Assembly: GCA_964016885.1 (NCBI GenBank)
Contig: OZ024757.1
Coordinates: 8,866,001-8,930,000 of the forward strand
Source of the DNA: Eledone cirrhosa
Lineage: Eukaryota
Reading direction: 5' to 3'
DNA: 64,000 nucleotides
Position 1 is the first letter of the stretch. The number at the start of each line of letters is the position of its first letter. The notes under the pieces were generated by a model. That model was not told the origin of the DNA. It ran no database searches and saw only the letters and a program-made list of their open reading frames with translations. Positions 87-64,000 of this stretch are shown in pieces. Both the position numbers and the translations under genes were made by a program.

Positions 87-87
87 A

Positions 88-22556: not shown

Positions 22557-25500
22557 GGCTATGTAACCATACATTCGCCAATCCTCGATAAGAGTGTTTA
22601 AATATCGAACATAAACAGTTCGAATAACGGTGAAATGGAGACTAGAACGTCATGTGACAGACTCTCACCCAACAGGTGCCCCCTGACTCAGCAGCAGGAA
22701 CCTGACTGTCAACCAAATACTGCTGATGTTGGAGGAAGGAGAAGAAGGAAAGGGGCCAGAACCAACTGGACGAAAGAATTGAATAGAACTGTTATGCAAT
22801 GTTACCTGAAAAGTAACCCCAAGGAGAGGGGCTACAGGAGACGGATGCATAACATCTGGAACGAGATTTGTTTATTTAAATTAGATGAACAAAAATTGGC
22901 CGGGCAGACTCGGGTAATAAGAACTAATGGGTGGATAAGCGAGCTGGAACTGGAGGAACTGAGCAGAGAGAATGGCTTGGAGATGGCGGGTGTAGTATGC
23001 CAGACAAGCGAGCCAGTGGGAAATGAAGGTGAAGAGGTCCTGAGAACGGAAGAACCACCCGAAGCAGACAATGATCTGAATACTGAGATAAATAATACCT
23101 GGAACAGAGATACGGCCACTGAGGAGATGAATGCTGACGGGCTAGGACAAGACTCGGTTGACATCCTAAATTTAGTGGTAGATGAATTGAACAATGATAG
23201 TGGGAGACCTATGAACCTAAGATTTGTAGACAGGAAAAAGTTAAAAGAAACAACAGCTAAGGTAAACAAAGTCATCCCATACCTTGAGGCGAGGAGCCTT
23301 CACCAGTGCAACAATATCCTCAAAGCAACAACAAATACGGTGAGGAAACTACTTGGTATAAAAGCGAGAGGAAACAACAGACAAGAAAGAGCAGAGCCGT
23401 GGTGGAAGAAGCGACTGAGTGGGCAAATCGGGGAAATGGGAAATGACATAGGAAAGCTTGAGTCACTACTGAATGGGACACTAAAAAACATAGGCACTAA
23501 AAATAGACTGGAAATAAAATACAAAACTAGGAGGAAAAAGCTAAATATTATCATAGAGGAACTGAAGCAACGCATTGTAGCAAAGAGTGCAAAAATCAGG
23601 CGATACGAGAACAGAGTCAGTCAGTATAAACAGAACCGCATGTTCGACAACAACCAGAAGATGCTGTTTGGACAGCTTGAGGGGAAAGAAAGAGGCAACG
23701 ACTTGATCCCTGGGGCGGAGCAAACTAAAACATTCTGGAGAGGAATATGGGAGCAGGATGTTAGACATAATGACCAGGCAGGGTGGATTGAGACAGTACA
23801 GAGGAAGATCGGTGAGCAGGCACAACAACAAACTGATTTGTGTATCAGAGTTGAAACTCTTAAGGGGCAGGCCAAAAAACTAACCAACTGGAAATCACCA
23901 GGCCCAGATGGTGTGCAGGGGTATTGGATTAAACATTTAACATCCCTCCACCCGAAGCTGACGGCCATGTTCAATGACTGCTTGGTGTCGGGTGAGGTGC
24001 CAGAGTGGTTGACAAAAGGTACCACAGTTCTGATAATGAAAGACCGAATCAAGGGTAATGATGTTACCAACTATAGAGCTATCACATGTCTGTCCGTAAT
24101 GTGGAAACTGTTGACGAGCATTGTGTCTGAGGAAATCTACCATCACCTCCACACAAACAACTTGTTACCGGACGAACAGAAAGGATGCTGAAAGAAGTCA
24201 CGTGGTACAAAGGACCAGTTACTTATTGATAAGATGGTAATGGGGAATTGCAGGAGGAGACACACTGATCTTGCCATGGGATGGATAGACTACAGAAAGG
24301 CATTTGACATGGTGCCTCATTCTTGGATCACCAAAAGCCTGGAGATCTTCAGGGTGGCAGATAACATCAGACAGTTGCTAGGCAGGAGTATGGGGTCCTG
24401 GGAGACAGAGTTGACATCAACTGGAGTATCCTTGGGAAGCGTGAAGATCAAGAGAGGTATCTTCCAGGGAGATAGCCTGTCCCCTCTGTTGTTTGCCCTT
24501 GCCCTGATGCCCTTGACCATTATGCTGCGAAAAGTGAGAGCAGGATACAAGTTGGGAAGGGGAGAGCTTACCATCAATCACCTCCACTTCATGGACGATC
24601 TTAAGCTCTTCGGGAAAAGTGAGAAGGAGTTGGATGTGCTTGTTGACACTGTCCGTATTTTCAGCAGTGATATATGTACGCAGTTTGGTATTGGTAAATG
24701 TGGAGTCATTGTGATGAGGAGGGGTAGGTCGAGCAGAAGTAACGGGATCCAGATACCAACAGGTGAGATGATAAAGGAAATTGACTATGAGGAAGGATAC
24801 AAGTATCTGGGAGTTCTGGAGGCTGATGGCATAAAGAACAAAAAAATGAAGGAATTGTTAAGAACTGAATACATTCGGAGAGTAAGGAGCGTATTGAAGT
24901 CACATCTGAACAGCAGAAATGCCATAAGCGCAGTAAATTCCCGAGCTGTGTCTATTATTAGGTACAGTGCGGGAATTCTGAGATGGAATATTGCTGAACA
25001 AAAAGAAATGGATAGGAAGACTAGGAAGCTATTGACTATCTACAACATGTTCCACAAGAGGAGTGATGTCGATAGACTCTACCTAAGGAGATCTGAGGGT
25101 GGAAGAGGTCTTATCAGCATAGAGGACTGTGTTCAGATGGAGAAAAACAACCTATACAAATACGTGACCTATAGTAAGGAGCCAATGCTCAGAGCTGTAC
25201 TGAAGGAGGGGACAGTAGGCCAGGGGATGTCCAAGGAGGAAATAACATCAAGGAGGAAGAGCAGCCTTAAGGGAAAATCCCTTCATAGTACCTTCTTTGA
25301 GAAAACTGAATTTAGAGATCCACAGACATGGAACTGGTTGAGAAGAGGAGACCTCAAAAAGGCTACAGAAGGAATGCTAATGGCTGCGCAGGAGCAGGCC
25401 CTCAAAACGAAGTGGTTGAAGCACCATATTTACAAGGAGGAGGCTAGCCCACTGTGCAGGATCTGTGGACAGAGAGAGGAGACTGTGGCTCACATTGTGT

Positions 25501-26101
25501 CCGAGTGTAAACGCCTAGCCCAGACCCACTATAAGGGCTGGAGACACGATGTGATGGGCAGGGTGATCCACTGGCACCTGTGCAAAGTAAACAATTTACC
25601 ACATTCTGAGAAATGGTATGAGCATAGGACAGAGGCGGTGATGGAGAACAATCAGGTGAAGGTGCTGTGGGATTTTAGGATACAGACGGACAAAAAACTG
25701 GAACACAATAGACCTGACCTGGTGGTTGTGGACAAAGAAAAAAGATCGTGTCTGATTGTGGATGTGGCCTGCCCATTCGACCCGAGAGTGCAAGAGAAGG
25801 AGAGGGAGAAAATTAACCGATACCAGGACCTAAAATGGGAGGTGAAAAGGATTTGGAACTGCCATGAAGTCAAAGTGATCCCGATTGTCATAGGCACACT
25901 GGGGACTATCTCCAAAAGTTTCCAGGGATGGTTAAAGAAAATCGGCCCCTTCACGCTTTTTGGAGCGCTTCAAAAGGCATGCTTGCTTGGAACAGCAAGA
26001 ACCCTCCGATACGTCCTGAATATCTGAGGCTGCAGGTAGTGGCTTGATATTCAATCCAACGGACTTTCCAGTTAACTAACATCAATGACTGAGACTCAAG
26101 G
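22557..26101 (+). mobile_element. R4/Dong-clade non-LTR retrotransposon family A, copy 1 (ORF 22635-26027, one internal TGA at 24189-24191)
   Basis: R4-type N-terminus (WTKELNRTVMQCY..GYRRRMHNIW..EQKLAGQ), RT motifs [23 protein letters not shown] and FMDDLKL, CCHC, RLE PD..D motif. Flanked on both sides by (AAT)n. Confidence 0.95.
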
Positions 26102-26110
26102 AATAACAAC

Positions 26111-26140
<30 letters not shown>

Positions 26141-26142
<2 letters not shown>

Positions 26143-29100
26143 TTTCTTTATTAACCACAAGGGTTTACATAAATTAGACATTAAGGAGAGTGCAGGACAA
26201 TACAGGACGGTACAAATGGGCATTTCTGCGTGTAAAAAACAAAAACAGAGGATGTAACAAAAAATAAAAATGAAAAATTCCCCAATAGGGGGAAGACTTC
26301 GGAGGGACATTTGTGGAGAAAGCCCAGTAAAAGGCCACAATGACCCTGACCACCTAGCCAAGTGCCCTCTCCCAGTTTTCCACCTTTAATTTACAGATAT
26401 ATACTCAGAGTAGGCCCATTCACTCGGGCCATTCTTGCTTCTCTCACCCATCTTTCAACAAAATGCTGGGAAGAGAGCACTTCCCTCTCTACTCTGATTT
26501 TCCTTTTCAAATGAAATTTGAAAAAGTCAATCAGAGCATCACCGAAGAGGTAAGTGCTCGTCTTCAGCCCTTTCAAACGTGTCCACCATACTATCTCTTT
26601 CGCCATGGCCACCAGACAGATAAAAACTGCCTGCCCTTCCCGGCTAAAGGAGGAGGGCGGGGCAATCCTCACGATGGACTCAGATGATATCCGGATCCGT
26701 CCTAAACGCGACAGCAGGTGTTCGATATAAACCCACAAGTCAGCAATTTTCGGACACTGGACGAGTGTGTGCAGGCGGTTTCGTCGCCCTGCGCGCATCT
26801 CGGACATGCCCGGCTGACTGCACCTCCATGCCTGTAAAGTTTATCCCGAACTGGCAAGCCTCCTCGGTAGCACTGCCTGGCCAGAGATTTCTGGAAGTTG
26901 TCCATAGGCCCTGGCCCGAAAGTTCTTCCGAAGAGATTGGCTAGTTAATATTCGTCGACGCCTAGAGTTTTCCCAAGTACGTCGTCGCTCTTCCCCTCCA
27001 CTAATCCTCTATAGAACGCCGAGGTGGAGTTTCCACCGATCACATTGCCCGATTGGTCGAGGGCTGTGAGCGCCTGAAGACATTCCAGTCTCCAGGCGCT
27101 CCCTCTCGGTCTTCGCTTGATCCAGGACTGCAGCTCCGTCAAGGAAACGAGCTGGGGAAATACGTGTCTAGCAAACGGTGACCACACCTGATCACCGTCG
27201 AGGAAGAGGTGGAAATGTAGCCTGAGCGCGTGCCTGCGCATCATCAGCCACGGCATGCCCGGCCCTCCACGTAGCGGGTGTTGACAACAAATGCACCGCC
27301 TGACCATCGGAGCGCGTCCCTTCCACAAAAAGCGAAAGAGCAAACGCTCCAGCGCAGTCAGGCGAGGCTTAGGACAAGGTACGACGGTCAGGCGGTAGCA
27401 GATGACAGACGCGATGTACGCGTTAGCCACCTCCGCTCGACCTTTCAGGGATAGCTTCCTCTCCACCCATTTCTGTGTGAGAGAAGCCACCCTGCTCGTT
27501 ACCTCGTCCCAGTTTTTGTCCGTCTGGAGGTCCGGACCGAACCAGACCCCTAGCAATTTAACCGGTCCGTCCGTCCAGCGTCCGACGACGCTGTTGGACG
27601 GCATGGACCTGCCTCTCCAGGTGCCGAGCTGCAGGCCCACTGACTTTTCCTGGTTGATCATTGCTCCTGTCACCGCTTCGTATTCTCTTAGTGTAGTGCC
27701 GATCGCCTCGATGTGTTTGGCATTCGACACCACTACGGTGACATCGTCCGCATATGCTGACACGGATCTTCCGCATCCTAGTTCGCGTGGGACGCCCCTC
27801 AACGTCTCCAGTTTGTGCAGTAATGACTCGAGAGTCACTACGTACAAGAGGGACGAGAGGGGACATCCTTGGCGGACCGAGCGCATGATGTTGAACGGTT
27901 CCGACAGGTGACCGTTCACTCTCACCACAGAGCAGATGTCGCTGTGCATGGCAGTGATCCAGCCTCTGAAGACGGGCCCAAAGCCAGCCGCCCTCAGGAC
28001 TACCGCTAGTTAACGATGGTCGACCCTATCGAAAGCTTTCGACTGATCTAAATTGATCAAGGACCCACCCGTGCCAGGTTCCTTAGCTACCCTCTCTACG
28101 GTGTATCGCATGAGGTGGAGGTTGTCGTGGATGGGTCTGTCGGGAATGGCGCATGTCTGCGCCTCTCCCACCAGACCACCAATGACAAGCGCCAACCACT
28201 TTGCTAGCACCTTGGCCAAAATCTTGAACTCTGTGTTTAGCAGAGTTATGGGCCGGAAATTATCTATGTTATCCCCCTTGTTTGGATCCTTTCTCAGCAG
28301 TTCCACCGCTCCTCGGCTCACAGAACTGGGAATTCTCCCGTTCTGTTGCCAGTTGCAGTAGACGTCCGCCAAGAGGCCTCCGAACAAGTCTGGCATCTGT
28401 ACGTAAAGTTCATAAGGCAGACCATCCAAACCAGGCGATTTACCCCTTGTGCAGCCAGTCATTGCCTCCCTTACTTCAGCGGCTGTTATCTGCTTTTCGC
28501 AACACTTCGCCTCAGTGGCCGAGAGCCGCGGCAGTCCGTCGCGGTAGACACTAAAGTCCATCCCTCGACCCGGCCCACCGCTGCCCCCGAACAGCTGAGC
28601 GAAGTGTTGCTGAAAAGCTTCACACATTTGCCCGGGATCGAGTACCATGCGCCCGTCGTGGTCCACCAAAGACCGGATCGTGGCTTTGTTGCCACGACGC
28701 GCCTCCGCCACTCGGGCCCATTGAACGGCTTTCGTCCCCTCGTGTCTGAGAGCACGCACCCTTGCTCTGACAACGCTGCCTTCGTGCTTTGCATTGAAGA
28801 ATTGGTCAAGGGCCAATTTCGCCGCAAGCACGTCGGTCGCAATGCCTTTGCTAAGCGCCTTGTCTAATTTTCTAACTAGTTCTCCCTCTGCTCTATTTTT
28901 CTCTATTGCAAAAGCCTTACTAAACCTAATGGATTCTATTCTAATCGCTCTTTTCAGAGCAAACCACCACTTGTTGTTGATGATGGCCCCCGTCAACGCC
29001 CGCTTAACTAGTTCGCTAATCCGGTCTCTGTAGGCCTTGCGCGCTGGTAAGGACGCGTTTAGCTTCCAGTAGCCGGGTCCTCGTCTATGAAGCCTATCTA

Positions 29101-32100
29101 AGTCAAGCACACAGATCACGAATTTGTGGTCCGTGTAGCTGACTATCTTGAATTGTGGACAGCCTATGCTAGACCTATCTATTTCCCTACAAAATACTCT
29201 ATCTAGATATGATCTGGATGACCCTATGCGATTTGTCCAAGTCCACATTGGCACATTCGGGAAATCCAATTGGTACCTGTCAGACAGTTCAAAACGTCTG
29301 AGCAGGTTGGTGAGGCTCTTGAAAACTCCACCCCTATCCGCTAATCCCACAAAGTCCAGGCGTGCATCTAAGATCCCGTTCCAGTCGCCCACTAACACTA
29401 AAGAGCGGGACGTTCCAAGAAAGGTCTCCAGACGCCGGAAGAAATCAGGCCGCCCTGCTCCTGTCGGGGTATAGACGGCCACTAGCCTGAAAGCTTGCCC
29501 GTCTCCGCTGGTCACGTCCAGCACCACCAGCTTACCCTCTGGGTCCAGGAAGATGGCCCGTATGGCGAGATCCAAACCTCTCCGAAAAAGCACAGCAACT
29601 CCTCCCCCCGATCCAGGACGGCTGGGAGATGCGTACACATCGTAGCCGCCGAAGATCGGTGCGAAGGCCCGTGCTTCTGAGATTCTGGTCTCGCTGATGG
29701 CCACTACATCTATGTTTAGTGACCTGAGGTCGTTGAGCAGGTGACCCTGCTTCCATGACGACCCCAAGCCACGCGCATTTATGCTGCCTATTCTGAGTGA
29801 GGTCATGTTTAAAATAGAGTGGAAAAGATGGGAAAGACCACTTACCGTACTTTTCGAAGAGGAGGGATGGTTTTTACATCTCTTTTCACTTGATCGTCTG
29901 GTGAAGGGACCGTTGAATCGTCCCTTCGGCTAGTCGTCGGCTCTTCTATGAGAATGTCTGAATATACTCTTCGATTGATAGTTCCTCCTAGGTCCCTGAA
30001 ATCACCAACTGCGTTGGGGAATTTCGTTTTAATGTTTGTGTATTGTTTCTGTGCTAGTTTTAGCAGTCTTATGTTAGTTGGCGTTTTGATTGGTGCTGGT
30101 ATTATGTAGTCGTGTTGTGAAATGTCTGTGTGTTCAATTATGTAAGTCATTATTTTCTTGTTGTGTGTATTTATTGCCGTGCATTTGTTTTTCTTGGGGT
30201 GGGGTGTGGTTCTGCTATTTTCTTGTCGTTGTTGCTGGGTGTGTGTGTCTTGTTGTGTTTGCGATGTTGGTGCTTGTGGTGGTGGTGTTGAAGGTGTTGT
30301 TGGCGGTGGGGTTGTCGCCGGTGGTGATGGTGGTGCTAGTGTGGGTGGTGATGGTGTTGGTGGTGTTGCTGCTGTGGGTCTCTTTGCAGTAGACTTTACC
30401 CTTTTTTCATTTCTTTCCTCCCTTTTCAAAGGCGATGATGCGCTGCTTCTGCGTTTGTGCCTTCTTACGACCTTTTGCCATCCCTCTTCCACCTCACACT
30501 CCATGTCTGATTCTGTGAGGTCGGGGAGGGGTACCAGCTCCACTCTTTCACTTGTTGTTGTTGGTGATGTTTGCAGTGGAGTCTCTGTTGGAGCTGCTGT
30601 TGATATTATTGTTGTTGTTGTTAATACTTCCACTGCTGTTGCTGTTCTTGATTTCCGTGGCGGGGTATGGGTGCCACGGTCCTATCGTTCCTGGTTGCCG
30701 CTTGTCCTGTTGCTGGTAGCAGTGGAGCCGGTTTCGGTAGGAGGGGGTTTTCTCCTTTCTCAGGGTCTTCTCGTTGCAGAAGGCCCTGAGCTGAGTCTTC
30801 GATCTACAGCGAAAGCATTTTGGGCGTTTGCCCTCAACACTTATGGGCAGTTGAGTGCCGTTATCGAAGTCTATTACATCCAGGATAGCTTCCATGCACT
30901 CCTGGTTGGTTTGCATTAACATCTCAATGGCGGTGCCGACCCAATCTTCTCTTACTCTTTTCTGTACTTGCAGTACAGTTGTTTTGTCCTCGATTCCGAC
31001 GAGGACAGACGCGGCCAGCCAAGAAGGGGCCATCCCGGGGGGGGGGGGGGTCAGTTTGACACTCACAATTTTTTCCCGCAGTAGGAGGGCACCAACACCA
31101 TTTCCTCGCTCCTTAGGGTCACTACGGATTGAGCCTTTGCCTCCTGGGGTGTGGCAAAAAGCACGTCTACGGTGGCATATTTCTTGCCTCGGGTGATATG
31201 CGTTTTACGCTGCCACAGAGACCCTAAGGCTTTTTGTATTTGAGCCTCTGTGGCTCTTTCAACCCTACGGGATTTTGTGCTTACTGTACAGTACGTGACC
31301 GTACAGTGCTATTGGGTTTCGAAAAATGTTTCGGCTGCCTTGCAGATTGCTCGGTGTCCGGTTTTCGTCACCATCTTCTTCGCTTCATCTAATTCCTCAT
31401 TTGCTATGATGATGGTTTCCAGGTTCTTTGCGATACCTGCAAACGAGGTTGGTTTTTCTTTGCTGCTGTTGTTGTTGTTGTTGTTGTCGTAAGAGCTGCT
31501 GTTACTTTTGTTGTTGCTGCAGGTAGTACGACTACTGCCGCCGTCGCTGTTGCTGTGGTTGTTGTTGCTGTTGTTGCTGTTGCTGCTAATGCTGTTGTTG
31601 TTTATGATGCTGCTGATGCTGCTTCGGCTGCTACTGTTGTTTTACTTGTCACTGTTGCTGCTGCTGCTGTTATTACGGCTGCTACTGCTATTATTCATGA
31701 CGTCAGACGAATGAAATGGCTTTTCGTATTTGCGGCACACCTTTTTCGTCGTTGTCGTCGTCGTGGAGAAATGTTCCATGCTTTGCACGTGATTTTGTAA
31801 ACTATTTTTCTTTACTGGCGTCGCTTGCGAAAGAGAAGGGAGGGAGAGAGACAATCTTCTCTCTGCTGTAGTGACGATTGAGGAAGAAGACGGAATGAGT
31901 GGGAGTGACTTGTGAAAATTATTTTTCGTAGCCATGTTTTTTTTTGACTTAAAATAAATATTGGGCACAAAACCCAATAAGCGGTTATTTAACCCCGAAG
32001 GGCCAAATAACGGACAGAAAGACCCCTCTCACGAGGAGGAGGGTGTTTTTGTCTACAATTTGGTTAAAGTTTTAAACAATTTACAATTGTTATAGCGGTC

Positions 32101-32149
32101 AAAATTTACAATACCTTACAGAGCCGAGCCTCGGTCAACCATGGCATTC
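26141..32149 (-). mobile_element. Full-length Tx1-clade LINE subfamily A, copy 1 (ORF1 31935-29842; ORF2 29806-26391)
   Basis: ORF2 has APE (SINARGL, SET, GDWN, SYLDR, TDH), RT (YADD) and CPRC. ORF1 is low-complexity with a degenerate zinc knuckle. Stops at 28010 and 26945. (AAT)n at both ends; AATAAA just before the 3' end. Confidence 0.95.
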
Positions 32150-32200
<51 letters not shown>

Positions 32201-32201
<1 letters not shown>

Positions 32202-38028: not shown

Positions 38029-38030
<2 letters not shown>

Positions 38031-38952
38031 CCACCGAATCAAGTCCCATAAAATTTCGGATCCATATTATATTGTTATATCGCTCAAATATTCAATTTTG
38101 TATTATATATTTTGTATTCAAAAAAGAAAATGGCTATAAATGGAAGAAAACACCCTCTGTCTACACTATATAGAACAGCCAAATAACAGCAATTTCACCA
38201 ACACCAGAAACTTGATGCACCACCTACCCCATCACACTAAATATAACAGCCAGATAACGGCAATTTCACCACCACCACCACCAATCCCAGCATCATAATA
38301 ATAATTACTATTATTATTGTCTCAATTGCACTGGGTAATTGGTGGCCTTGTGCCTAAAATAGAAACAATTATTATTGTCTCAAGTTTTAACAAAATGTTT
38401 AATTCCAATTTAACGGGAATATGTCAACACAATATATATTAAACATACGCGACACAAACTCATAGATACTACATATCACAAAACTCAGTAACGACAACGC
38501 CACCGCCGCCACCACTCCATCCATCATTGCTACCACTATCCCATCACCGCCGCCACCACTCCTTCATTGCTACCACCACTATTCCCCTGTTAACTTGAGA
38601 GAGAATGGGGAAGGTGGCGGTATCACTTGACAAGGGAGAGGCTAGCAAAAGATATAAATAGATTGACTTAGTGACCGGCCAAACGTCAACATCAACAACT
38701 ATGGCACTGCTGGCTCACCCCTTCCTCACCAACAATATAAAAAGCCCCAGCACCCCCACCGACATAGCCAACAACAATAACAGGCAACTTCAGCAAAAAG
38801 TATATTATATTATTGTAATGCACTGGGTGATTGCTGGCCTTGTGCCTGGAGTGGAGACAATTATTAATAATTTCATTCTTAAGCCACGCAATGCTCACAT
38901 TAAGGAACCACTCATGATAATAACAATTTAAAAAAAAACAACAAAAAGAAAA
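38029..38952 (+). repeat. Shared leader, copy 2 (R4B-associated; SINE-tail fragments; ends in an A-rich tract)
   Basis: Same blocks as copy 1; GATATAAATAGA at about 38651. Paralogous to 56718-57557. Confidence 0.85.
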
Positions 38953-42867: not shown

Positions 42868-42886
42868 TAATAATAATAATAATAAT

Positions 42887-50600: not shown

Positions 50601-50659
50601 TATAGCGTTCAAAATTTGCAATACCTTACAGAGCCGAGCCTCCGTCAACTATAGCATTC
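47655..50659 (-). mobile_element. Tx1 subfamily A, copy 2, with two large internal deletions
   Basis: Both termini match copy 1. ORF2 junction VVA|REPG at about 49600, ORF1 junction at about 49990. (AAT)n at both ends. Confidence 0.95.
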
Positions 50660-50694: not shown

Positions 50695-50695
<1 letters not shown>

Positions 50696-50934
50696 TACTT
50701 ATCGCAAATCCCAGGAAACCCGCGTATAGGAGAAATACAAAAGATAGTACTAATGGGAACTGCCCATATATTAAGGAAGATCCTGTCAATATAAGTACAT
50801 CACAAGTCTAAACACTAAGGATGCATGTGTGAATATGTATGTTCTTTCTTGAACATGGCGGACCTTGTTGTCTCTTGAGGTCACTGGTTGTGACTTGGTG
50901 ATAACTCGTATAAACATAAAGTAAGATAAATGCA
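50695..50934 (+). mobile_element. R4 family B, short 3' fragment
   Basis: Matches about 42627-42864; sits between AAT tracts. Confidence 0.9.
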
Positions 50935-50951
50935 AATAATAATAATAATAA

Positions 50952-51948
50952 TAAGGGAATCACATGATTGGATGATCAAACTCGTTTTGAAACACGAAAG
51001 CATCAAAAGATCATATTCCATTACAAAAGATGCACAAAGATACAGTAATGGACTACAAATTTCAGAAGTCCCATTTACTGCTGAAATGGAAAACACAGAA
51101 AAAGCAAAGCAGGTAAAAGTAACTGCAAAGAAAGAACTGCTACAGAAACTGGCTAAGAAATGGCAAGAAAAGCCTCTGTATGGAAAATACCCAGAGCGAG
51201 CTAACAATCCTGATGTTGACAACACTTTAACCCATCAGTGGTTGGCATCCTCTGGACTGAAATCGGAGACTGAAGGACTGATTATATCAGCACAAGATCA
51301 GTGACTGCCAACAAAAAATTACCAAGCCAACATAATAAAAAATGGGTGCAGCCCATTATGCCGTGTATGCAAAAAACAACCAGAGACCATTGACCATATA
51401 ATTTCAATGTGCAGTCCTATAGCTCCAACCGAATACCTAAACAGGCATGACAGAGCTGCACAATACATACATTGTATAATGTGTAAGCATTTTGACCTTC
51501 CCAATCAAAAGAATTGGTGGGAGCATCAACCACCTCCCATACTTGAAAAAGATCACATCTCAATCTTGTGGAACTTTAGCATCCAAACAGACTGAAAAAT
51601 AGATGCAAATAGACCTGATATAATATTGAAGGACTTCCAAAAGAGGGTATGCCTGTTAATTGATATGTCTGTTCCAATAGACAAGAATGTATCTATAAAA
51701 ACATTTGAAAAATTGAGCAAGTATAAGGACATGGAGATAGAAATTGGAAAAATGTGGAAATTGAGAACTAAAACAATACCAGTGGTTGTAGGCGCTCTGG
51801 GAATGATACCAAAGGGGACTAATGATTAATTATCGCAAATCCCAGGAAACCCGCGTATAGGAGAAATACAAAAGATAGTACTAATGGGAACTGCCCATAT
51901 ACTAAGGAAGATTCTGTCAATATAAGTACATCACAAGTCTAAACACTA
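50952..51948 (+). mobile_element. R4 family B, 5'-truncated fragment, 3' UTR cut
   Basis: Matches about 41757-42746. Begins TAAGGGAATC, overlapping the AAT tract, and is fused to Tx1B at about 51950. Confidence 0.9.
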
Positions 51949-51950
51949 GT

Positions 51951-54900
51951 AGGCGGTAGTAGATGACGGACGCGATGTACGCGTTAGCCACCACCGCTCG
52001 ACCTTTCAGGCATAGCTTCCTCTCGGCCCATTTCTGGGTGAGAGAAGCCACCCTGCTCGTCACCTCGTCCCAGTTTTTGTCCGTCTGGAGGTCTGGACCG
52101 AACCAGACCCCTAGCAATTTAACCGGTCCGTCTGTCCAGCGCCCGACGACGCTGTTGGACGGCATGGACCTGCCTCTCCAGGTGCCGAGCTGCAGGCCCA
52201 CTGACTTTTCCTGGTTGATCATTGCTCCTGTCACCGCTTCGTATTCTCTTAGTGTAGTGCCGATCGCCTCGATGTGTTTGGCGTTCGACACCCCTACGGT
52301 GACATCGTCGGCATATGCTGACACGGATCTTCCGCATCCTAGTTCGCGCGGGATCCCCCTCAACGTCTCCAGTTTGTGCAGTAATGGCTCGAGAGTCAAT
52401 ACGTACAAGAGGGACGAGAGGGGACATCCTTGGCGGACCGAGCGCATGATGTTGAACGGTTCCGAAAGGTGACCGTTCACTCTCACCACAGAGCAGATGT
52501 TGTTGTGCATGGCAGCGATCCAGCCTCTGAAGACGGGCCCAAAACCAGCCGCCCTCAAGACTGCCTCTAGGTAACGATGGTCGACCCTATCGAAGGCTTT
52601 CGACTGATCTAAATTGATCAAAGACCCACCCGTGCCAGGTTCCCTAGCTACCCTCTCTACGATGTATTGCATGAGGTGGAGGTTGTCGTGGATGGATCTG
52701 TCGGGAATGGCGCATGTCTGTGCCTCTTCCACCAGACCACCAACGACAAGCGCCAACCTCTTTGCTAGCACCTTGGCCAAAATCTTGAACTCTGTGTTTA
52801 GCAGAGTTATGGGCCTAAAAATATCTTTGTTATCCCCCTTGTTCGGATCCTTTCTCAGCAGCGCCACCGCTCCTCGGCTCACAGAGCAGGGATTTCTCCC
52901 GTTCTGTTGCCAGTTGCAGTAGACGTCCGCCAAGAGGCCTCCGAACAAGTTTGGCATTTGTACGTAAAGTTCATAGGGCAGACCATCCAAACCAGGCGAT
53001 TTACCCCTTGTGCAACTAGTCATTGCATCCCGTACTTCAGTGGTTGTTATCGCCTCAGTGGACGAAAGCCGCGGCAGTCCATCGAGGTAGACACTAAAGT
53101 CCATCCCTCGATCCGGCCCGCCACTGCCCCCGAACAGTTGAGCGAAGTGTCGCTGAAAAGCTTCACACATTTGCCCGGGATCGAGTAGCATGCGCCCGTC
53201 GTGGTCCACCAAAGACCGGATCGTGGCTTTGTTGCCACGACGTGCCTCCGCCACTCGGGCCCATTGAACGGCTTTCGTCCCCTCGTGTCTGAGAGCACGC
53301 ACCCTAGCTCTGACAACGCAGCCTTCGTGCTTTGCATTGAAGAATTGGTCAAGGGCCAATTTCGCCGCAAGTACGTCGGTCGCGATGCCTTTGCTAAGCG
53401 CCTCATCTAATTTTCTAACTAATTCTCCCTCTGCTCTATTTTTCTCTATTGCTAAAGTCTTACTAAACCTAATGGACTCTATTCTAATTGCTCTTTTCAG
53501 AGCAAACCACCACTTGATGTTGACGATGGCCCCCGTCAACGCCCGCTTAACTAGTTCGCTAATCCGGTCTCTGTAGGCCTTGCGCGATGGTAAGGACGCG
53601 TTTAGCTTCCAGTAGCCGGGTCCTCGCCTATGAAGCCTATCTAAGTCAAGCACACAGATCACGAATTCGTGGTCCGTGTAGCTGACTATTTTGAATTGTG
53701 GACAGCCTATGCTAGACCTATCTATTTCCCTACAAAATACTCTATCTAGATATGATCTGGATGACCCTATGCGATTTGTGCAAGTCCACATTGGTACATT
53801 CGGGAAATCCATTCGGTACCTGTCAGACAGTTCAAAACGTCTGAGCAGGTTGGTGAGACACTTGCACCCTCCTTCCCTATCCACTAATCCCACACAATCC
53901 CAGCGTGCATCTAAGATCCCGTTCCAGTCGCCCACTAACACTAAAGAGCGGGACGTTCCAAGAAAGGTCTCCAGACGCCGGAAGAAATCACGCCGCCCTG
54001 CTCCTGTCGGGGCATAGACGGCCACTAACCTGAAAGCTTGGCCGTCTCCGCTGGTCACGTCCAGCACCACCAACTTACCTTCTGCGTCCAGGAAGATGGC
54101 CCGTATGGCAAGATCCAAACCTCTCCGAAAAAGCACAGCAACTCCTCCCCCCGATCCCGGACGGCTGGAGATGCGTACACATCGTAGCCGCCGAAGATCG
54201 GTGCGAAAGCCTGTGCTTCTGAGATTCTGGTCTCGCTGATGGCCACTACATCTATGTTTAGTGACCAGAGGTCGTTGAGCAGGTGGCCCTGCTTCCATGA
54301 CGACCCCAAGCCACGCGCATTTATGCTGCCTATTCTGAGTGAGGTCATGTTGAAAAGGAGTGGAAAAGATGGGAAAGACCACTTACCTTACTTCTCGTAG
54401 GGGAAGGACGGTTTTTCCATCCTTTTCACTGCTTGTGGCCTCCTCAGGAAGGATGTCCTTATAAATCCTCCTGGAGAGTGCTTGTCGGAAGTCTCCGATG
54501 TCTTTGGGGAATTTTTGTTTTAGTGTCATGTACGTTTTCTGTGTGATGCGAGTGATTTGTATGTGTGGAGGTGGTGTGAATTTTGGGGTTGTTTTGTTGT
54601 CTTTTTCTGTGATGCTGGTGTTGTGTTAGATGTAGTGTAATAATTGCTTGTTGTTCAAATTTAATGCTGTGTAGTGTGTATCGTTTTGGTTGTTCTGTTT
54701 TGTTTGCGTTTGTTGTGCGTTTGTTTCTGTTTCGCATTTTGATGACTTTTGTGGTGTAGGTGATGGTGGTGTTGGGGTTAATGATGGTGATGGTGTTGGT
54801 GTTTGGGTTGATGGGGTTGGTGATGCTGGTGTGGATGGTGGCATATCTGTCCTAACTTTTTTGTTTCTTAATTTATTTGTTTCCCTCTGTATTTTGTTTT

Positions 54901-56580
54901 TGGAGGAGGAAGGAAGAGAATTTTTTCTTTTTTGGTTTCTTTTTTTTTTCCGGATACGTTTCCCACTCCTCGTCGTCACAATCTGTCTCCAGTTGTGATA
55001 GGCCGGGGAGTGGAAAATCCTCCACAGCCGTTAGTTTTGGTTGTGGCGTGGTGGATGGTGTAGGCGCTGGTGCTAGTTCTGAAGCGTTGGGTGGTGGTGG
55101 TGTTGGTTTTGCTGGTGGTGGTGGTGGTGTTGGTTTTTCTACTGTTGCTGGGGTTGTTGCTGTTATAGTTGCTTCTGTTGTTGCTGCTACAGTTGTTGCT
55201 GCCATCTCTGCTACTGGTGGTGTTGATGGTTGTGTCACTGGGGTGGGTTGGAGAGGTGGCCTCAACCTTTTAGCCTGAGGGCAGAAAGCCCTTAGGTGGA
55301 TTCCTTCACCACAAACGACACACCTAGGTCTTCTGCCCTCGCCAATTACCGTGAGGTGGCTGCCGTCAGTGAGGTCTATTACCTCTGGGATCTCCTCAAT
55401 GCTTTTTTGGTCCGCTTGGATCAGGAGCTCCATCCCAGATCCGCACCAGTTCTCCTGCTTTTCTTTTGCTATTGCTATTATCTTTGTGTTGGCTTCTATT
55501 AGCCAGGGAATTTCGATGGCCGGTGGAACGTGGGTCACCCTGATCTTTACGAGTCTCTGGCCACAATAGCTTGGGACGAGTGTGAAGTCGTCACTTCTTA
55601 ATGGGGCCATGGAGTGTTCTCTAGCCTCCTCTGGTGTTTCAAAGAACACGTCCACTGTTCCATACTTTTGCCCACGTCTGATGTGGGTTTTTCTTGCCCA
55701 CACATGTCCCAAAGCTTTTTGGATTTGGGACTCGGATGCCCGTTCAACTCGGCGCGATTTTACATTTATTGTTCTATACGACACGGTGCATAGGCGCCGA
55801 TGCTCCATTTTATTAGGTGGGGGGTGAGGTTGACCCTGTACCCATCTTTCTTTACCATTTGTTAGGCATTTTCTAAATCCTCCTGAGTTACCGTAAATGC
55901 TTCGAATTGTTTTGCTACTCTGGCGAAACTGAGGGGGGGGGGTTATAATGTCATTGTTGTTGGTGTTGCTATCGTTAATATTAATTTTAGTTTCAGTTGT
56001 GGTGGTGGTAACATCAGTCGTCTTTGGTGGGGAAGAGTCCATTTTGCTTGATTTCATTTCGACATCACGAGTTAATTTATTTTTTTCTTCTTTTGTTTCT
56101 GTTGTCGCGGTGGTGGTGGTAGTGGTGGTTGTCGCGGTGGTGGTGGTGGTGGTGGTGGTGGTGGTGGTGGTGGTGGTGGAGGCTTTAACACCTGCAGTCA
56201 TTGGTAATGGCGGGAAATGTATGTCTGCCTGAGACAAATTTAAAATATTGCTAGTGCTTATATTTTTTTTTGTGTTGGCAAACGTAGTAACATTTACAAT
56301 GGTGGTGTCGGTGTGAGGTGTTATTTTGTGAGGAAGGCTTTCAGCTGCTTGGTGCAGAGGTGAATTAGCCATTTTTTTCAAAGAAATTTTTTGATAATAA
56401 TAAAAGTTTAAATTTTGGGCACAAGGCCCCAATCTTTTTGGGTGTCCTTTTCGGAAAACAATGTATGTGCGCTTATAAACAGTTAACAATAAAAAATTTC
56501 CATAAATGACAATTTTTAACAAACGGAAATAACAAACCTTTGCGGAGCTCACGATGATACGATTTACTACGTAGGTCGCC
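51951..56580 (-). mobile_element. Tx1 subfamily B, copy 2 (complete 5' end; ORF1 ATG 56372; ORF2 ATG 54348; 3' end deleted)
   Basis: ORF1 has an intact knuckle CVVCGEGIHLRAFC; ORF2 has APE and RT (YADD). The 5' end GGCGACC abuts (AAT)n 56581-56629, followed by (AAG)n. Confidence 0.95.
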
Positions 56581-56658
<78 letters not shown>

Positions 56659-56717
56659 AAGAAGAAGAAGAAAGAACAATAAGAAAGAACTATTCTTAGC
56701 ACAAATGTTGCATAAAG

Positions 56718-57520
56718 GCACCGAATGAGGTCCCATAAAGTTTCGAATCCATATTATATTGTTGTATCGCTCAAATATTCAATTTTGTATTATATATTTT
56801 GTATTCAAAAAAGAAAATGGTTATAAATGGAACAAAACACCCTCTGTCTACACTATATAGAACAGCGGCAATTTCAATTTCACCTACACCAGAAACTTGA
56901 TACACTTGATACACTACCTATCCCATCACACTAAATATAATTTCACCAGCATCATAATAATAATTACTAGTATTATTGTCTCAAATTTTAAAAAATGTTT
57001 AATTCAAATTTTACGGGAATATGTCAACACAAAATATAATGAAAATATATATTAAACATACGAACACAAACTCATAGATACTATATCAGTAACCACAACA
57101 CCACCGCTGCCACCACCCCACCACATCCATCATCGCCGCCATCACTCATTCAATGCTACTGACACTATTCCCCTGTTAACTTGAGAGAGAAAAGGGAAGG
57201 TGACGGTAGCACTAGACAAGAGAGAGGCTAGCAAAAGATATAAATAGACTGACTTGGTGACCTTGCCACGGCCAAACGTCTACATCAACAATTATGGGAC
57301 TGCTGGCTCACCCCTTCCTCACCAACAATATAAAAAGCCCCGGCACCACCACCGGCATAGCCAACAACAATAACAGCCAACTACAACAAAAAGTATATTA
57401 TATTATTGTAATGCACTGGGTGATTGCTGGCCTTGTGCCTGGAGTGGAGACAATTATTAATAATTTCATTCTTAAGCCACGCAATGCTCACATTAAGGAA
57501 CCACTCATGATAATAACAAT

Positions 57521-57557
<37 letters not shown>
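56718..57557 (+). repeat. Shared leader, copy 4, ending in a ~31-nt poly(A)
   Basis: Paralog of 38029-38952. Confidence 0.85.
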
Positions 57558-57559
<2 letters not shown>

Positions 57560-60500
57560 CGTGACCAAGAAATACCGGGATGGCGGCCGGCGGGGAATAG
57601 CCATGTCTCTAGGGGAGAACGACCCCTCTAGTCTTGGTTGACACTCGTTCTAGAAGTGGTAACACGAAATGATTACCCCTTGGCGGATAAGGATAAAACG
57701 CGACAAAATAAAGTAAATGTCTAATGATAAAATCTCATACCGCATCGGCCGTCACCCGGGTAAAAAAGGGCCGCGTCCCTCAGAGAGGAACCAGACTGGG
57801 TTCGAAAAATCAGCTAATGGTTCAAACCTTCCCATCACTTCGGAGCTGGAGACCTCCCATAACCGGAATACTCCTACTGTTGGCCCTCCATGCTCACCAC
57901 CAAGAAATCCAAAGAAAAAGAGAGAAAAATGGTCAAGGGAAGATAATAAAGAAGTCCTTGAGGCTTTCTACACTGCCATGTACTACCCATCAAATACATC
58001 GAATACAGAACAAACATATATCAACTGAAAAAAGAAACATCCCGAAAACAGAGGCTATATTGACAGTAACAAACTAGCCAATATACGAAGAAATATTGTA
58101 AGAAAAAAGTTACTAACTGATATAGAAATTGATCAGATCAAGCTAGTAGCACAAAGTCAGCGAAGGGAAAATGAAGCATGTGTCAGTGAAAACGAGGTAA
58201 ACTGTAACACTTCGAATCCCAGGGTTGGGGCGGAATCACTGGCAACAGAACAAATTAAAGAAAGGAGCGAAAAGTGGAGGGAGTGCATGCTCAGGATGAT
58301 ACTCCAAATGAAAATAATGAGATCGTAAAAGATAAAGAGATGAATGAGAATGAACTTGCCAACTTGAAGGATGAAATTATGATCGAATGGATGAAAATGA
58401 AAGAATCTGACATGGGGCAACGAGACACCCTCCCTAAGATCCAGAACTCCAAACAGAACCAAAAGATAATACACAAGACTAACATAATTCTCAAAAACAT
58501 TATCATCACAAACAAACTAAACATTACTGATTTAAATCATCTCTATTATGCATCGGCTAAAGTCACCACTCACTTATGTGGAGTGAAAATGAAAAAACAA
58601 AGGAATTCCCACAAGAAATATACTTGGCAAGAGAACATCAATCGACAAATAAACCTTCTCCGATCTGACATAGAAATTTTAACAAACTATAAAGTAGGTG
58701 AACATGTTAAACAAACTAAACTTAGAAAATTGAAAAAAAAGTACAGTATAAAATCAACATGTGACATAGACATGCTGATAGAAATAATCAAGCAAAAAGT
58801 GTCGGCCAAAGCTGCTCGTATCAGGCGCTTTGAAAAACGATCTAGATTCTATAAGGACAATAACATGTTCAAAAACAACCAAAGAAACTTCTACTGAAAA
58901 ATTGGTAAGTCAACAATAACTGCTAAATCAATACCACCCATGGAGGAAGTGCAAGAATTCTGGGAAAAGTTCTGGGCCGAAGAAAAAGTTCATAACATAC
59001 ATGCCCCATGGATAGACAGACAAATGAAAGATACAGCTCACCTTGAGGAACAAATATGGGAAAATATAACAGTTGAACAGTTGCGCTTGGCTCTAAGAAA
59101 AACCAGCAAATGGAAATCCCCAGGAAAAGACAAAATAAAAAACTTTCGGATAAATAACCTCACTGAGTCTAATGAGCTGTTAGCCCAACTTTACAATGAA
59201 ATAGTTAAGGAGCCAGAAAAGATACCATCATGGCTAGTTAACGGCATTACATTCCTCCTTCCGAAGAATGATGAAACAAACAATCCCCAAAATTACAGAC
59301 CGATAACTTGCTTGACCACAATGTATAAAATTTTAACATCAGTCCTAACTGAATACACATATGACCACCTGATAACAAATGACCTATTTCCCATTGAGCA
59401 GAAAGGGTGTAAACGAGGCTCATATGGCGGTAAGGATCAGCTTCTGGTTAACAAAATGATACTGGAAGATTGTCATAATAGACACAAAAATCTATCGATT
59501 GCTTGGATAGATTATAAAAAAGCATTCGATAGTTTGCCACACAGTTGGATTGAAAAATGTTTAGAGATTTTCAAAATATCACCCGTTGTCAGGAGGTTTT
59601 TGTCATTCAGTATGAAGACATGGAAAACGCCACTCCGTTTGAATAGTGAAACAAAATCACTGGAAGCTGGAGAAGTTAATATTAATTGTGGAATTTTTCA
59701 GGGTGACTCTTTATCACCGCTTTTATTCTGCATGGCACTTATACCATTAAGTAAAATGCCCAATGAGACAAAACATGGATATAAAGTCTATGACAAAACC
59801 ATTAATCACCTGTTCTACATGGATGACCTGAAACTATTTGCAAAAAATGACGAACAATTGCAAGGGCTATTATCCACTGTGGAGCAGTTCAGTGATGACA
59901 TTAAAATGAAGTTTGGACTAGATAAATGCGCCAAAGCAACGTTCACCAGAGGAAAGCTGCTGAAGAGTTCAGACATTAATCTTGATCGGGGGAACGTGAT
60001 AAGAGAACTTGATCAAGAAAAAACTTACAAATATCTAGGTGTTTGTGAAGGAGACGGAATCAAGCACTCGACAATGTGGGAAAGGATAAGGAAGGAATGT
60101 TACCGCAGAGTAAGAACAATCTTAAGAACGGAATTGAATGCAAGGAATAGGATCGATGCCATAAACACGCTTGCCCTACCAGTAGTAACCTACAGTTACA
60201 ATGTCATCAACTGGTCAAGCACAGAGATCCGTAGGCTCGATACAAAAATTCGAAAATTCTTAACCATGCACAGAATCATCACCATAAGGCAGATATAGAT
60301 AGAATATACCTCCCTAGGAAAGAAGGAGGACGTGGGTTAATCCAGTTAGACATTGCGTTGAAAACTGCAACAATTGGATTATCTACATATCTAAGGGAAT
60401 CACATGATTGGATGATCAAACTCGTTTTGAAACACGAAAGCATTAAAAGATCATATTCCATTACAAAAGATGCACAAAGATACAGTAATGGACTACAAAT

Positions 60501-61508
60501 TTCAGAAGTCCCATTTACTGGTGAAATGGAAAACACAGAAAAAGCAAAGCAGGTAAAAGTAACTGCAAAGAAAGAACTGCTACAGAAACTGGCTAAGAAA
60601 TGGCAAGAAAAGCCTCTATATGGAAAATACGCAGAGCGAGCTAACAATCCTGATGTTGACAAAACTTTAACCCATCAGTGGTTGGCATCCTCTGGACTGA
60701 AATCGGAGACTGAAGGACTGATTATATCAGCACAAGATCAGTGTCTGCCAACAAAAAATTACCAAGCCAACATAATAAAAAATGGGTGCAGCCCATTATG
60801 CCGTGTATGCAAAAAACAACCAGAGAGCATTGACCATATAATTTCAATGTGCAGTCCTATAGCTCCAACCAAATACCTAAACAGGCATGACAGAGCTGCA
60901 CAATACATACATTGGATAATGTGTAAGCATTTTGACCTGCCCCATCAAAAGAATTGGTGGGAGCATCAACCACCTCCCATAGTTGAAAAAGATCACATCT
61001 CAATCTTGTGGAACTTTAGCATCCATACAGACCGAAAAATAGATGCAAATAGACCTGATATAATATTGAAGGACTTTAAAAAGAGGGTATGCCTGCTAAT
61101 TGATATGTCTGTTCCAATAGACAAGAATGTATCTATAAAAACATTTTAAAAATTGAGCAAGTATAAGGACCTGGAGATAGAAATTGGAAAAATGTGGAAA
61201 TTGAGAACTAAAAGAATACCAGTAGTTGTAGGCGCTCTCGGAATGATACCTAAGGGGTCTAATGATTACTTATCGCAAATCCCAGGAAACCCGCGTATAG
61301 GAGAAATACAAAAGAGAGTACTAATGGGAACTGCCCATATACTAAGGAAGATTCTGTCAATATAAGTACATCACAAGTCTAAACACTAAAGATGCATGTG
61401 TGAGTATGTATGTTCTTTCTTGAACATGGCGTACCTTGTTGTCTCTTGAGGGCACTGGTTGTGACTTGGTGATAACTCGTATGAACATAAAGCAAGATAA
61501 ATGCAACT

Positions 61509-61509
<1 letters not shown>
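57558..61509 (+). mobile_element. R4/Dong family B, copy 2 (ORF 57717-61365, stops and frameshifts)
   Basis: Colinear with 38953-42867; (TAA)n tail. Confidence 0.95.
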
Positions 61510-61548
<39 letters not shown>

Positions 61549-62851
61549 GGGAAGAAGACGCACGAGGTGACGGAGGTCATGAAATCGCTCCCGTAAGTTT
61601 TGAATTTTTAACATATTTAAATCATTTGTGAAATAACAACTCCTAGTACAAATGCTACGTAAAGCACCCGGCTTGAGCCCCAAAAAAATTCGGACCCAAA
61701 ATATATTGTTATAAGGCTCAAATATTCAAATATTCAACTTTGTATTGTACACTGTATATCCAAAAAAAAATGGCTATAAATGGAAGAAGAAGAACCCCCC
61801 CCCCCTCCTCTCCTCTGGCTACACTATATAGGACAGCTAAACTCACCAACACCAGAAACTAGATACACCACCCACCCCATCATCTGTGTACACTAAACAC
61901 AACAGCATTTTCACCTTCACCGCCACCGCTCACTACGGCCATCATTACCACCACTATCCCATCACCGCCGCCACCACCCCTTGACTCCTTCACTGCTGCT
62001 GCCACCGCTACAGCACCATCACTACAGTAATACGGCTCAAATATTCAAATATTCAACTTTGTATTGTACACTGTATATCCAAAAAAAAATAAAATGGCTA
62101 TAAATGGAAGAAGAAGAACCCCCCCCCCCCTCCTCTCCTCTGGCTACACTATATAGGACAGCGAAACTCACCAACACCAGAAACTAGATACACCACCCAC
62201 CCCATCATCTGTGTACACTAAACACAACAGCATTTTCACCTTCACCGCCACCGCTCACTACGGCCATCATTACCACCACTATCCCATCACCGCCGCCACC
62301 ACCCCCTGACTCCTTCACTGCTGCTGCCACCGCTACAGCACCATCACTACAGTAATACGGTCGCATCAGCGCCACCACTGCCTCGGTATCGACATCACCA
62401 CCACCACTGTCTCAGTATCGCCAACGCCGCCAGCCTCTGCTGGCTACCACTTCCACATTATAGAATTCCTACTACTAACAAAGAGGAAGGCATCAAAATA
62501 TATAGATAGACTCAAAAGAAAAAAGAAAAAACAAACAACAAAAGCAGCACAGCAACAACAGTAAAAAACGAGAAAAACAGAGAAAAACAAAAACAAAAAA
62601 AGAAACCCCAAAAACGTAAAGAAAATAAGAATGAAGAGAGAAGCAGGCGGACGGACAGAGAAGAGGGGGGAAAAAGTAAAACTTAAAAAACAAAAACTAA
62701 GTCAGACATTCGAATACTACATTACAATGAAACTTATGCTTATTCATTTTTGGGGCCCTTTCTGCCCGTGTGTTTGTTTGTTTATGTGTGTCCGTATACA
62801 GCGTGGTGATAATGCCACACAAGGGCCAAGTGGGATGGCGGATCCACAGAT
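61549..62851 (+). repeat. Shared leader, copy 5, with an internal ~320-bp tandem duplication (61715-62033 / 62034-62358)
   Basis: GGCTCAAATATTCAAATATTC starts at both 61715 and 62034. Confidence 0.88.
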
Positions 62852-64000
62852 GGCTATGTAAACATACATTCGCCAATCCTCGATAAGAGTGTTTAAATAT
62901 CGAACATAAACAGTTCGAATAACGGTGAAATGGAGACTAGAACGTCATGTGACAGACTCTCACCCAACAGGTGCCCCCTGGCTCAGCAGCAGGAACCTGA
63001 CTGTCAACCAAATACTGCTGATGTTGGAGGAAGAAGAAGAAGGAAAGGGGCCAGAACCAACTGGACGAAATAATTGAATAGAACTGTTATGCAATGCTAC
63101 CTGAAAAGTAACCCCAAGGAGAGGGGCTACAGGAGACGGATGCATAACATCTGGAACGAGATTGGTTTATTTAAATTAGATGAACAAAAATTGGCCGGGC
63201 AGGCTCGGGTAATAAGAACTAATGGGTGGATAAGCGAGCTGGAACTGGAGGAACTGAGCAGAGAGAATGGCTTGGAGATGGCGGGTGTAGTATGCCAGAC
63301 AAGCGAGCCGGCGGGAAATGAAGGTGAGGAGGTCCTGAGAACGGAGGAACCACCCGAAGCAGACAATGATCTGAATACTGAGATAAATAATACCTGGAAC
63401 AGAGATACGGCCACTGAGGAGATGAATGCTGACGGGCTAGGACAAGATTCGGTTGACATCCTAAATTTAGTGGTAGATGAGTTGAACAATGATAGTGGGA
63501 GACCTATGAACCTAAGATTTGTAGACAGGAAAAAGTTAAAAGAAACAACAGCTAAGTTAAACAAAGTCATCCCATACCTTGAGGCGAGGAGTCTTCACCA
63601 GTGCAACAATATCCTCAAAGCAACAGCAAATACGGTGAGGAAACTACTTGGTATAAAAGCGAGAGGAAACAACAGACAAGAAAGAGCAGAGCCGTGGTGG
63701 AAGAAGCGACTGAGTGGGCAAATCGGGGAAATGAGAAATGACATAGGAAAGCTTGAGTCACTACTGAATGGGACACTAAAAAACATAGGCACTAAAAATA
63801 GACTGGAAATAAAATACAAAACTAGGAGTAAAAAGCTAAATATTATCATAGAGGAATTGAAGCAACGCATTGTAGCAAAGAGTGCCAAAATCAGGCGATA
63901 CGAGAACAGAGTCAGTCAGTATAAACAGAACCGCATGTTCGACAACAACCAGAAGATGCTGTTTGGACAGCTTGAGGGGAAAGAAAGAGGCAACGACTTG
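62852..64000 (+). mobile_element. R4/Dong family A, copy 3 (ATG 62930; runs off the window)
   Basis: Colinear with 22557-23705; shares the early TAA stop with copy 2. Confidence 0.93.

Follow-up and report, generated by a model that had tools for sequence, protein, structure and literature searches.

The 64,000-nucleotide stretch of Eledone cirrhosa DNA considered here (assembly GCA_964016885.1, contig OZ024757.1, positions 8,866,001 to 8,930,000; hereafter the window) contains, from position 20,783 to its end, a stack of retrotransposons. It is composed of two families assigned to the R4/Dong type, R4A and R4B, of elements assigned to the L1 group, Tx1A and Tx1B, and of a short interspersed nuclear element (SINE), all arranged around an AAT trinucleotide microsatellite. 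A first-pass annotation had described this region as a macrosatellite formed by duplication of whole units. The evidence gathered below, which comes from one locus, points to a two-polarity, microsatellite-targeted retrotransposon stack rather than to a demonstrated macrosatellite, and we consider it probable that elements inserted again and again into a single AAT tract by target priming, the copies being later altered by deletions and local conversion.

Architecture of the stack

Self-comparison together with reading of the sequence places the start of the stack at 20,783, earlier than the position 22557 given previously. With the boundaries as drawn here, retroelements occupy 42,747 of the 43,218 bases (99%) from this point to the end of the window, which closes inside the third R4A copy, unit counts thereby referring to the sequence up to 64,000. 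The same approach bore out the R4A starts at 22557, 44090 and 62852 and the R4B starts at 38953 and 57558, and the element classes initially proposed proved right. The spacings between the R4A starts amount to 21,533 bp (copies 1 to 2) and 18,762 bp (copies 2 to 3), this start being set only by the 5' junction of copy 1. If the segment found upstream of R4 bodies is called the leader, the elements follow one another as a leader with an R4A 3' end (A0), R4A1, Tx1A1, Tx1B1, leader-R4B1 and the SINE, then leader-R4A2, Tx1A2, two 5'-truncated R4B pieces, Tx1B2, leader-R4B2 and leader-R4A3, with the following coordinates and strands.

20752..20782, +, left-boundary (AAT)n run, target microsatellite remnant that is no element's tail
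20783..22524, +, hybrid of a B-type leader (20783-21482) joined directly to an R4A 3' end (21483-22524); absent from the first-pass annotation
22557..26101, +, R4A copy 1, leaderless and read as 5'-truncated, with reverse transcriptase (RT), CCHC and PD..D-type endonuclease motifs
26141..32149, -, Tx1A copy 1, full length, with open reading frame (ORF) 1 of putative RRM/CCHC type and ORF2 (APE endonuclease, RT)
26368..27721, no strand, near-identical tract common to Tx1A copies 1 and 2, including the DEY* stop
32202..37971, -, Tx1B copy 1, decayed, with 11 indels relative to copy 2 in ORF2 and neutral private changes
38030..42868, +, leader B1 (5'-truncated, with a private 42-bp SINE-tail insertion) and R4B copy 1
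42887..43167, -, SINE with an internal 96-bp duplication and AAT runs on both sides
43211..47624, +, leader A2 and R4A copy 2, with the E48 stop at 44309-44311
47655..50659, -, Tx1A copy 2, with two internal deletions and the same 5' end as copy 1
50695..51948, +, a pair of 5'-truncated R4B insertions, of about 240 bp and about 1 kb, both beginning at an AAT run; absent from the first-pass annotation
51951..56580, -, Tx1B copy 2, its 3' end lost at a deletion junction
56686..61509, +, leader B2 (after (AAT)n(AAG)n, with a 5' end unlike that of B1) and R4B copy 2
61549..64000, +, leader A3 (325-bp internal duplication) and the 5' part of R4A copy 3, which runs off the window

All 12 perfect (AAT)4+ runs of the window lie on the + strand and at element boundaries, no ATT run of the same kind being present in the window, and such a run is found at 12 of the 13 stack boundaries, the exception (51948/51951) being a deletion junction. 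Five of them (20754, 37974, 43170, 50660 and 56581) stand at the left edge of the stack or between two 5' ends, and thus represent target sequence rather than 3' tails. Every R4 3' end that is intact adjoins an AAT run, as does every 5' end of an R4 element or leader, in one case via an (AAG)n extension, while at this single locus the 5' ends of Tx1A and Tx1B (4/4) and their intact 3' ends (3/3) are located at the AAT/ATT repeat. Orientation is equally regular, since R4 elements are always sense to AAT and Tx1-type elements and the SINE always antisense. The representation of both strands, already pointed out in the first-pass annotation, is accounted for by opposite insertion polarity on one microsatellite.

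In the scenario that we favour, the (AAT)n microsatellite would have turned into an insertion sink for three families, two of R4/Dong type and one of the L1 group (Tx1-type) that exists with two versions of ORF1, all of them inserting by target-primed reverse transcription. The polarity just described suggests that the R4 and Tx1-type endonucleases would nick opposite strands of the AAT tract. As each insertion would leave AAT on both sides, the target would be regenerated and the stack would grow, copies mostly arriving separately, at different times, from active source elements. Later deletions and local gene conversion between neighbours, affecting a 1.35-kb tract of Tx1A and perhaps a stop codon of R4A, would then have mixed the copies. 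Telomeric arrays of TTAGGG or TTAGG are absent from both strands of the window, and a multicopy RNA gene as target or leader is ruled out by the absence in the window of Rfam matches at gathering score and of tRNA genes (0 in both cases). CpG depletion follows family (0.41-0.50 in R4, about 0.9 in Tx1) rather than position, and is uninformative on heterochromatin.

In R4A copy 1, one ORF (frame of 1,142 positions) extends over 1,130 codons counted from the initial ATG and is interrupted by a single premature stop. The R4 ORF contains an RVT_1 domain, and its best solved relatives are R2 proteins (5/5 matches). Reading of the translation reveals a C-terminal CCHC finger and PD..D restriction-like endonuclease motifs, and Pfam returned no Exo_endo_phos match, the signature of the APE domain, in R4 ORFs. 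An N-terminal tryptophan (W45) is kept in 10/10 homologues, in a region without Pfam match for a Myb/SANT-like domain. From this ORF layout, these motifs, the R2 matches and the (TAA)n insertion, R4A and R4B are provisionally classified as R4/Dong-type; at least 120 homologues were listed, none of them under an element name. They are nonetheless distant from each other, as a close homologue of R4A shows 63% identity with R4A1 and about 41% with R4B1. The best named match, from Argonauta hians (55%), suggests an octopod as the probable host. A possibly too strict pattern for ribozymes resembling that of hepatitis delta virus gave 0 matches on both strands at R4 5' ends, and folds were uninformative.

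In the Tx1-type elements, ORF2 matches PF03372, PF00078 and PF13966, which correspond to APE endonuclease, RT and a C-terminal zinc-binding domain, and its best solved match is LINE-1 ORF2p (residues 15-747, E 4e-33). On these domain matches, Tx1A and Tx1B are assigned to the L1 group, the narrower label Tx1, taken over from the first-pass annotation, being provisional. ORF1 shows a CCHC motif by reading; it has no Pfam or sequence match, a homologue search passed 0 of 228 candidates, and its Atlas look-alikes (0.88-0.92), CCHC and ZCCHC3-type RNA-binding clusters, provide a lead only. Between Tx1A and Tx1B, ORF2 and the 3' untranslated region (UTR) are 5-7% diverged, whereas the ORF1 cores are 35-65% identical in protein and the 5' UTR is strongly diverged, a contrast that suggests module exchange within the family. 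A decayed relative of both (about 70% identical DNA) is located at 11856-14834 (+); it has a near-same 22-nt 3' terminus and ends in (AT)n instead of (ATT)n, which suggests a microsatellite target switch within the family.

Duplication of units or separate insertions

One duplication would be expected to leave uniform, neutral and equal-age divergence between units, together with common outer junctions. In terms of substitutions, however, the units differ by 3.2% in R4A, 2.9% in R4B, 8.5% in leader B, 0.07% in a tract of Tx1A, 3-8% in the rest of Tx1A, 6.9% in Tx1B ORF2 and 11.7% in Tx1B ORF1 and 5' end, a heterogeneity that is detected with R4A, Tx1B ORF2 and R4B alone (chi-square 73.5, 2 degrees of freedom). 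No premature stop or frame change is common to R4B1 and R4B2, to R4A1 and R4A2, or to Tx1B1 and Tx1B2 in ORF2, a test limited by short segments with two open frames, and no truncation or deletion breakpoint common to units was found. When checked at base level, the paralogous junctions are not all identical either: the Tx1B/leader-B junction differs on both sides between units, Tx1B2 being about 22 nt longer at its 5' end and leader B2 starting about 40 nt further 5' than B1, with an (AAG)n run added. Besides, R4B1, R4B2 and an independently truncated R4B piece form a star (private sites 18/14/12), the piece diverging by 3.0% from R4B1 and by 2.6% from R4B2, which are 3.2% apart in this comparison.

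Selection was evaluated with a permutation null that keeps the substitution spectrum, used in place of a plain Nei-Gojobori dN/dS which ignored transition bias. Synonymous changes are in excess in 3 of the 16 tests, all of which pass Bonferroni correction, namely the unit pairs Tx1B ORF2 (57 observed vs 39.8 expected, P 0.002), Tx1B ORF1 core (24 vs 13.2, P 0.0015) and R4A2/A3 (18 vs 10.1, P 0.0025). More precisely, the excess lies on the branches of Tx1B2 (30 of 62 changes synonymous vs 18.4 expected, P 0.0017) and of R4A3 (7 of 9 vs 2.6, P 0.002), and it persists when CpG sites are dropped (P 0.023 and 0.005, respectively), thereby indicating that both lineages were active after the split. 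In the same line, ORF2 of Tx1B copy 2 has no premature stop across 730 aligned codons, the Tx1B1 and Tx1B2 branches are unequal (103 vs 63, P 0.002), and a sister relationship of these two copies receives the least support (2 sites vs 13 and 10) when the tree is rooted with the distant Tx1C copy. With such heterogeneous divergence, synonymous excess, unequal branches and different 5' ends, the proposal of a macrosatellite grown by unit duplication is not upheld.

The shared marks from which the first-pass annotation had concluded to duplication rather than re-insertion have to be reconsidered in the same light. The DEY* stop is indeed present in both Tx1A copies (26945-26947 and 48459-48461), but it sits in the tract 26368-27721, which shows 1 mismatch in 1,354 bp between flanks with 13/227 and 12/365 mismatches, and it does not date the unit. 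This tract would result from gene conversion or from assembly polishing, and copy 1 has a private stop at 28010, outside of it. The imperfect AAT junction after R4A (about 26101 and 47624) also exists, yet it is the natural 3' end of the element. Among these marks, only the early TAA of R4A copies 2 and 3, found at 44309-44311 and 63071-63073, is left. What stands of duplication is local copying at the DNA level, as in the 1.35-kb Tx1A tract. The events reported as private to one unit were all recovered, that is, the SINE at 42887-43167, the two deletions of Tx1A copy 2 and the leader duplication, whose period is 325 and not 320.

Several observations nevertheless weigh against separate insertions. 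The TAA just mentioned replaces a glutamate (E48) that is kept in 8/10 homologues, and could reflect a short conversion, a tolerated stop of the source element or recurrence. No significant synonymous excess is seen for R4A1/A2 (34 vs 28.2, P 0.13) and only a weak one for R4B (28 vs 20.1 pooled, P 0.03), while Tx1A1/A2, apart from the tract, behaves neutrally (15 vs 16.1, P 0.67, with a broken reading frame used for 1 of 4 segments), as expected of a DNA copy. A second SINE-tail fragment is common to leaders B1 and B2. Moreover, B is followed by A in two places, either directly or with the SINE between them, and in a third if the hybrid at 20783 is taken to derive from such a pair. The order of the nine long elements does repeat, as the first-pass annotation had stated (P 0.0008 when adjacencies are scored and 0.02 when a tandem subsequence is). 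This order is interrupted in unit 2, where two 5'-truncated R4B insertions (50695-50934 and 50953-51948) lie between Tx1A and Tx1B and a deletion junction has taken about 1.2 kb from the 3' end of Tx1B; Tx1A-Tx1B adjacency is therefore observed once only. Once short pieces are counted, the probabilities become 0.14-0.28 (adjacencies; 0.14-0.23 for the short R4 pieces) and 0.36-0.54 (tandem subsequence); the fair count depends on the model, and the element order stays partly unexplained.

These observations can be accommodated by an early tandem duplication of a four-element stack through unequal exchange, largely overwritten by conversion or exchange with other copies into a heterogeneous, macrosatellite-like array. 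The repeated order of long elements, the similar divergence of R4A and R4B between units (3.2% and 2.9%), the E48 stop common to two copies and the conversion active at the locus all fit with it, and R1 dimers grew into a heterogeneous array in Drosophila according to bioRxiv 10.1101/158386. Such overwriting would however have to replace the whole of Tx1B with its 5' end, and the spacer together with the 5' end of leader B, the units have no truncation or deletion breakpoint in common, and selection signatures are present. In addition, a crossover between flanking R4A copies predicts copies 2 and 3 to be the closest, whereas copies 1 and 3 are (1.7% vs 3.8-3.9% for the other pairs), which rules out a single unequal crossover of this kind. 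We therefore regard an early duplication as unlikely, while keeping it among the serious alternatives. A simple artefact, in which the assembly would have set two haplotypes of one stack in tandem, appears most improbable: repeat-rich loci are generally hard to assemble and the 1.35-kb tract with one mismatch may be due to polishing, but alleles should differ uniformly and neutrally and have the same 5' ends, in contradiction with the divergence of 0.07-11.7%, the synonymous excess and the differing 5' ends, and a third R4A copy and the hybrid copy are present as well.

Another way of removing the coincidence in order is to suppose that two-element composites moved as one RNA and inserted into AAT. 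With X for leaderB-R4B-AAT-leaderA-R4A (sense) and Y for Tx1B-ATT-Tx1A (antisense), both formed by read-through or template jumping at source stacks, the window reads X X Y X Y X. Composite reverse transcription would give what is seen at 5' ends, the inner ones (Tx1A, leader A) being identical between units and the outer ones (Tx1B, leader B) variable, even though invariant 5' ends are equally expected of full-length single elements. At 20783, an A 3' end follows directly on a B leader; Tx1A, a passenger in such a composite, diverges neutrally where Tx1B shows selection; and template jumps and R2/R1 hybrids are documented in PMC3414825. On the other hand, 9-12 kb RNAs would have to be reverse transcribed repeatedly and almost completely, insertions and a deletion separate Tx1A from Tx1B in unit 2, and R4A3, a supposed passenger, has a synonymous excess. 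Composites thus seem doubtful to us, and separate insertion into the AAT tract followed by local conversion is retained as the preferred explanation.

The leader upstream of the R4 bodies

The junction between leader and R4 body lacks an AAT run in 5/5 cases. Despite the distance between R4A and R4B, all five leaders are related to one another (8-22% divergence over about 175 bp), the one at 20783 being 9.1% from leader B1 and 16-18% from the A leaders over the same length. Three of them have a common first nucleotide, and each of the two B leaders is cut at a point of its own, as expected of 5' truncation; leader A3 carries its internal duplication with 0.9% divergence. Leader B1 has a private insertion of a 42-bp SINE tail, flanked by a 16-bp target duplication (38310-38325 and 38368-38383) that opens with three ATT units, with the same polarity as Tx1. 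Leader and body together are read as the full R4 element, of 4.4-4.8 kb. Near-full-length Dong-R4 insertions of Octopus vulgaris have a mean of about 4.2 kb in Table 1 of PMC13282606 (4,732,901 bp for 1,129 copies), a length compatible, albeit weakly, with this reading.

Over its first ~250 bases the leader aligns, in the same orientation, with the Tx1A 5' UTR and the beginning of ORF1, A-rich context of the start codon included (z 7.1 and 5.4, with 0/300 shuffles each; 11 pairs tested), whereas control comparisons gave z 1.7 and 1.0 (reverse strand) and z 1.6 and 0.2 (3' UTR). Comparison with the Tx1B 5' end yielded only z 2.6-3.3, and that of the Tx1A and Tx1B 5' ends z 1.6, so that the homology claim stands on the Tx1A comparison. 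This similarity suggests that the leader is the 5' UTR of the R4 elements, captured from a Tx1-type 5' end by both families, and, by analogy with known L1-group 5' UTRs, it may act as a promoter. Alternatively, an R4 element could have inserted behind a decayed Tx1-type copy, the pair being later copied. One may go further and envisage a cooperative (AAT)n system, in which R4/Dong elements, needing a promoter once outside transcribed targets, would have captured the Tx1-type 5' UTR common to the two distant families, and in which R4B-R4A and Tx1B-Tx1A composites and opposite-strand nicking would spread ordered blocks by retrotransposition and not by DNA duplication; taken as a whole, this view is rather unlikely.

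Known systems and flanking sequences

According to PMC7998251 and PMC3812793, Dong elements use (TAA)n as their target in insects, molluscs and cnidarians, and in Bombyx, Anopheles, Biomphalaria and Darwinula they combine, as here, a single ORF, RT and a C-terminal restriction-like endonuclease with (TAA)n insertion. In contrast to Dong, two families (about 40% protein identity) are stacked here with an L1-group element over >43 kb, and the R4 elements bear a long leader with homology to the 5' end of a Tx1-type element. Two-ORF APE-RT elements in simple repeats are described in PMC4494074, with the Tx1 families Kibi in (TC)n and Koshi in (TTC)n and crocodilian families in (TTCC)n/(TTTC)n; unlike these, the present target is (ATT)n in element sense and is also used by R4 in the opposite polarity. 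In a literature search outside of which lay Repbase, Dfam and Kojima and Fujiwara 2004, no Tx1 family targeting AAT/ATT and no evident report of Tx1 promoter capture were found. As for SART and TRAS of Bombyx mori, PMC10088271 presents two families in opposite orientations that form arrays in one simple repeat, (TTAGG)n, as here; both are telomeric and of the R1 clade, whereas the present families have different endonuclease classes, and sit in a microsatellite of interstitial type, telomeric repeats being absent from the window. Finally, Drosophila R1 tandems result from repeated insertion at one site with target sequence between copies (10.1101/158386), and R2/R1 hybrid SIDEs, like the hybrid at 20783, combine the 5' end of one element with the 3' end of another (PMC3414825); these elements form single-orientation arrays in 28S ribosomal DNA, while the window has no Rfam or tRNA gene match.

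If the proposed scenario holds, site-specific insertion would suffice to expand one trinucleotide microsatellite into a satellite-like block of tens of kb, and the polarity of the enzymes would account for the presence of both strands. This would provide a testable explanation for LINE hotspots in octopus-type genomes, Dong-R4 and L1-Tx1 being among the recently active LINE groups of Octopus vulgaris in Table 1 of PMC13282606. It also points to an L1-group endonuclease that would prefer AAT/ATT, and a cross-clade capture of a 5' UTR by R4 would bear on the transcription of promoter-less R2-group elements outside ribosomal DNA. Were the composites real, ordered blocks of transposable elements could propagate via RNA.

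The SINE of the stack, which we take to be octopus-type, has a 3' end (42887-42921, -) that appears to resemble the Tx1 3' end (26141-26175, -), suggesting that it may use the Tx1-type machinery, and its head contains A- and B-box-like motifs. Strict AAT specificity of this SINE is ruled out by three other copies (2256, 3575 and 8018-8179) located outside AAT runs. To the left of the stack, fragments of another non-long-terminal-repeat element at 9900-11850 (+), with GVQQGDPLGPLLF-type RT and late endonuclease-like motifs, are presumably CRE-like and adjoin a 690-bp (GGT)n-type repeat (9125-9811). Decayed RT-like frames at 15400-17000 (-) and 18600-20700 (-), which may resemble a Penelope-type and an RTE-type element, indicate that the left flank is transposon-rich too. 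Within positions 1-4220, an AT-rich unit of about 820 bp is repeated several times (80-89% identity) alongside (AT)n runs and fragments of SINEs.

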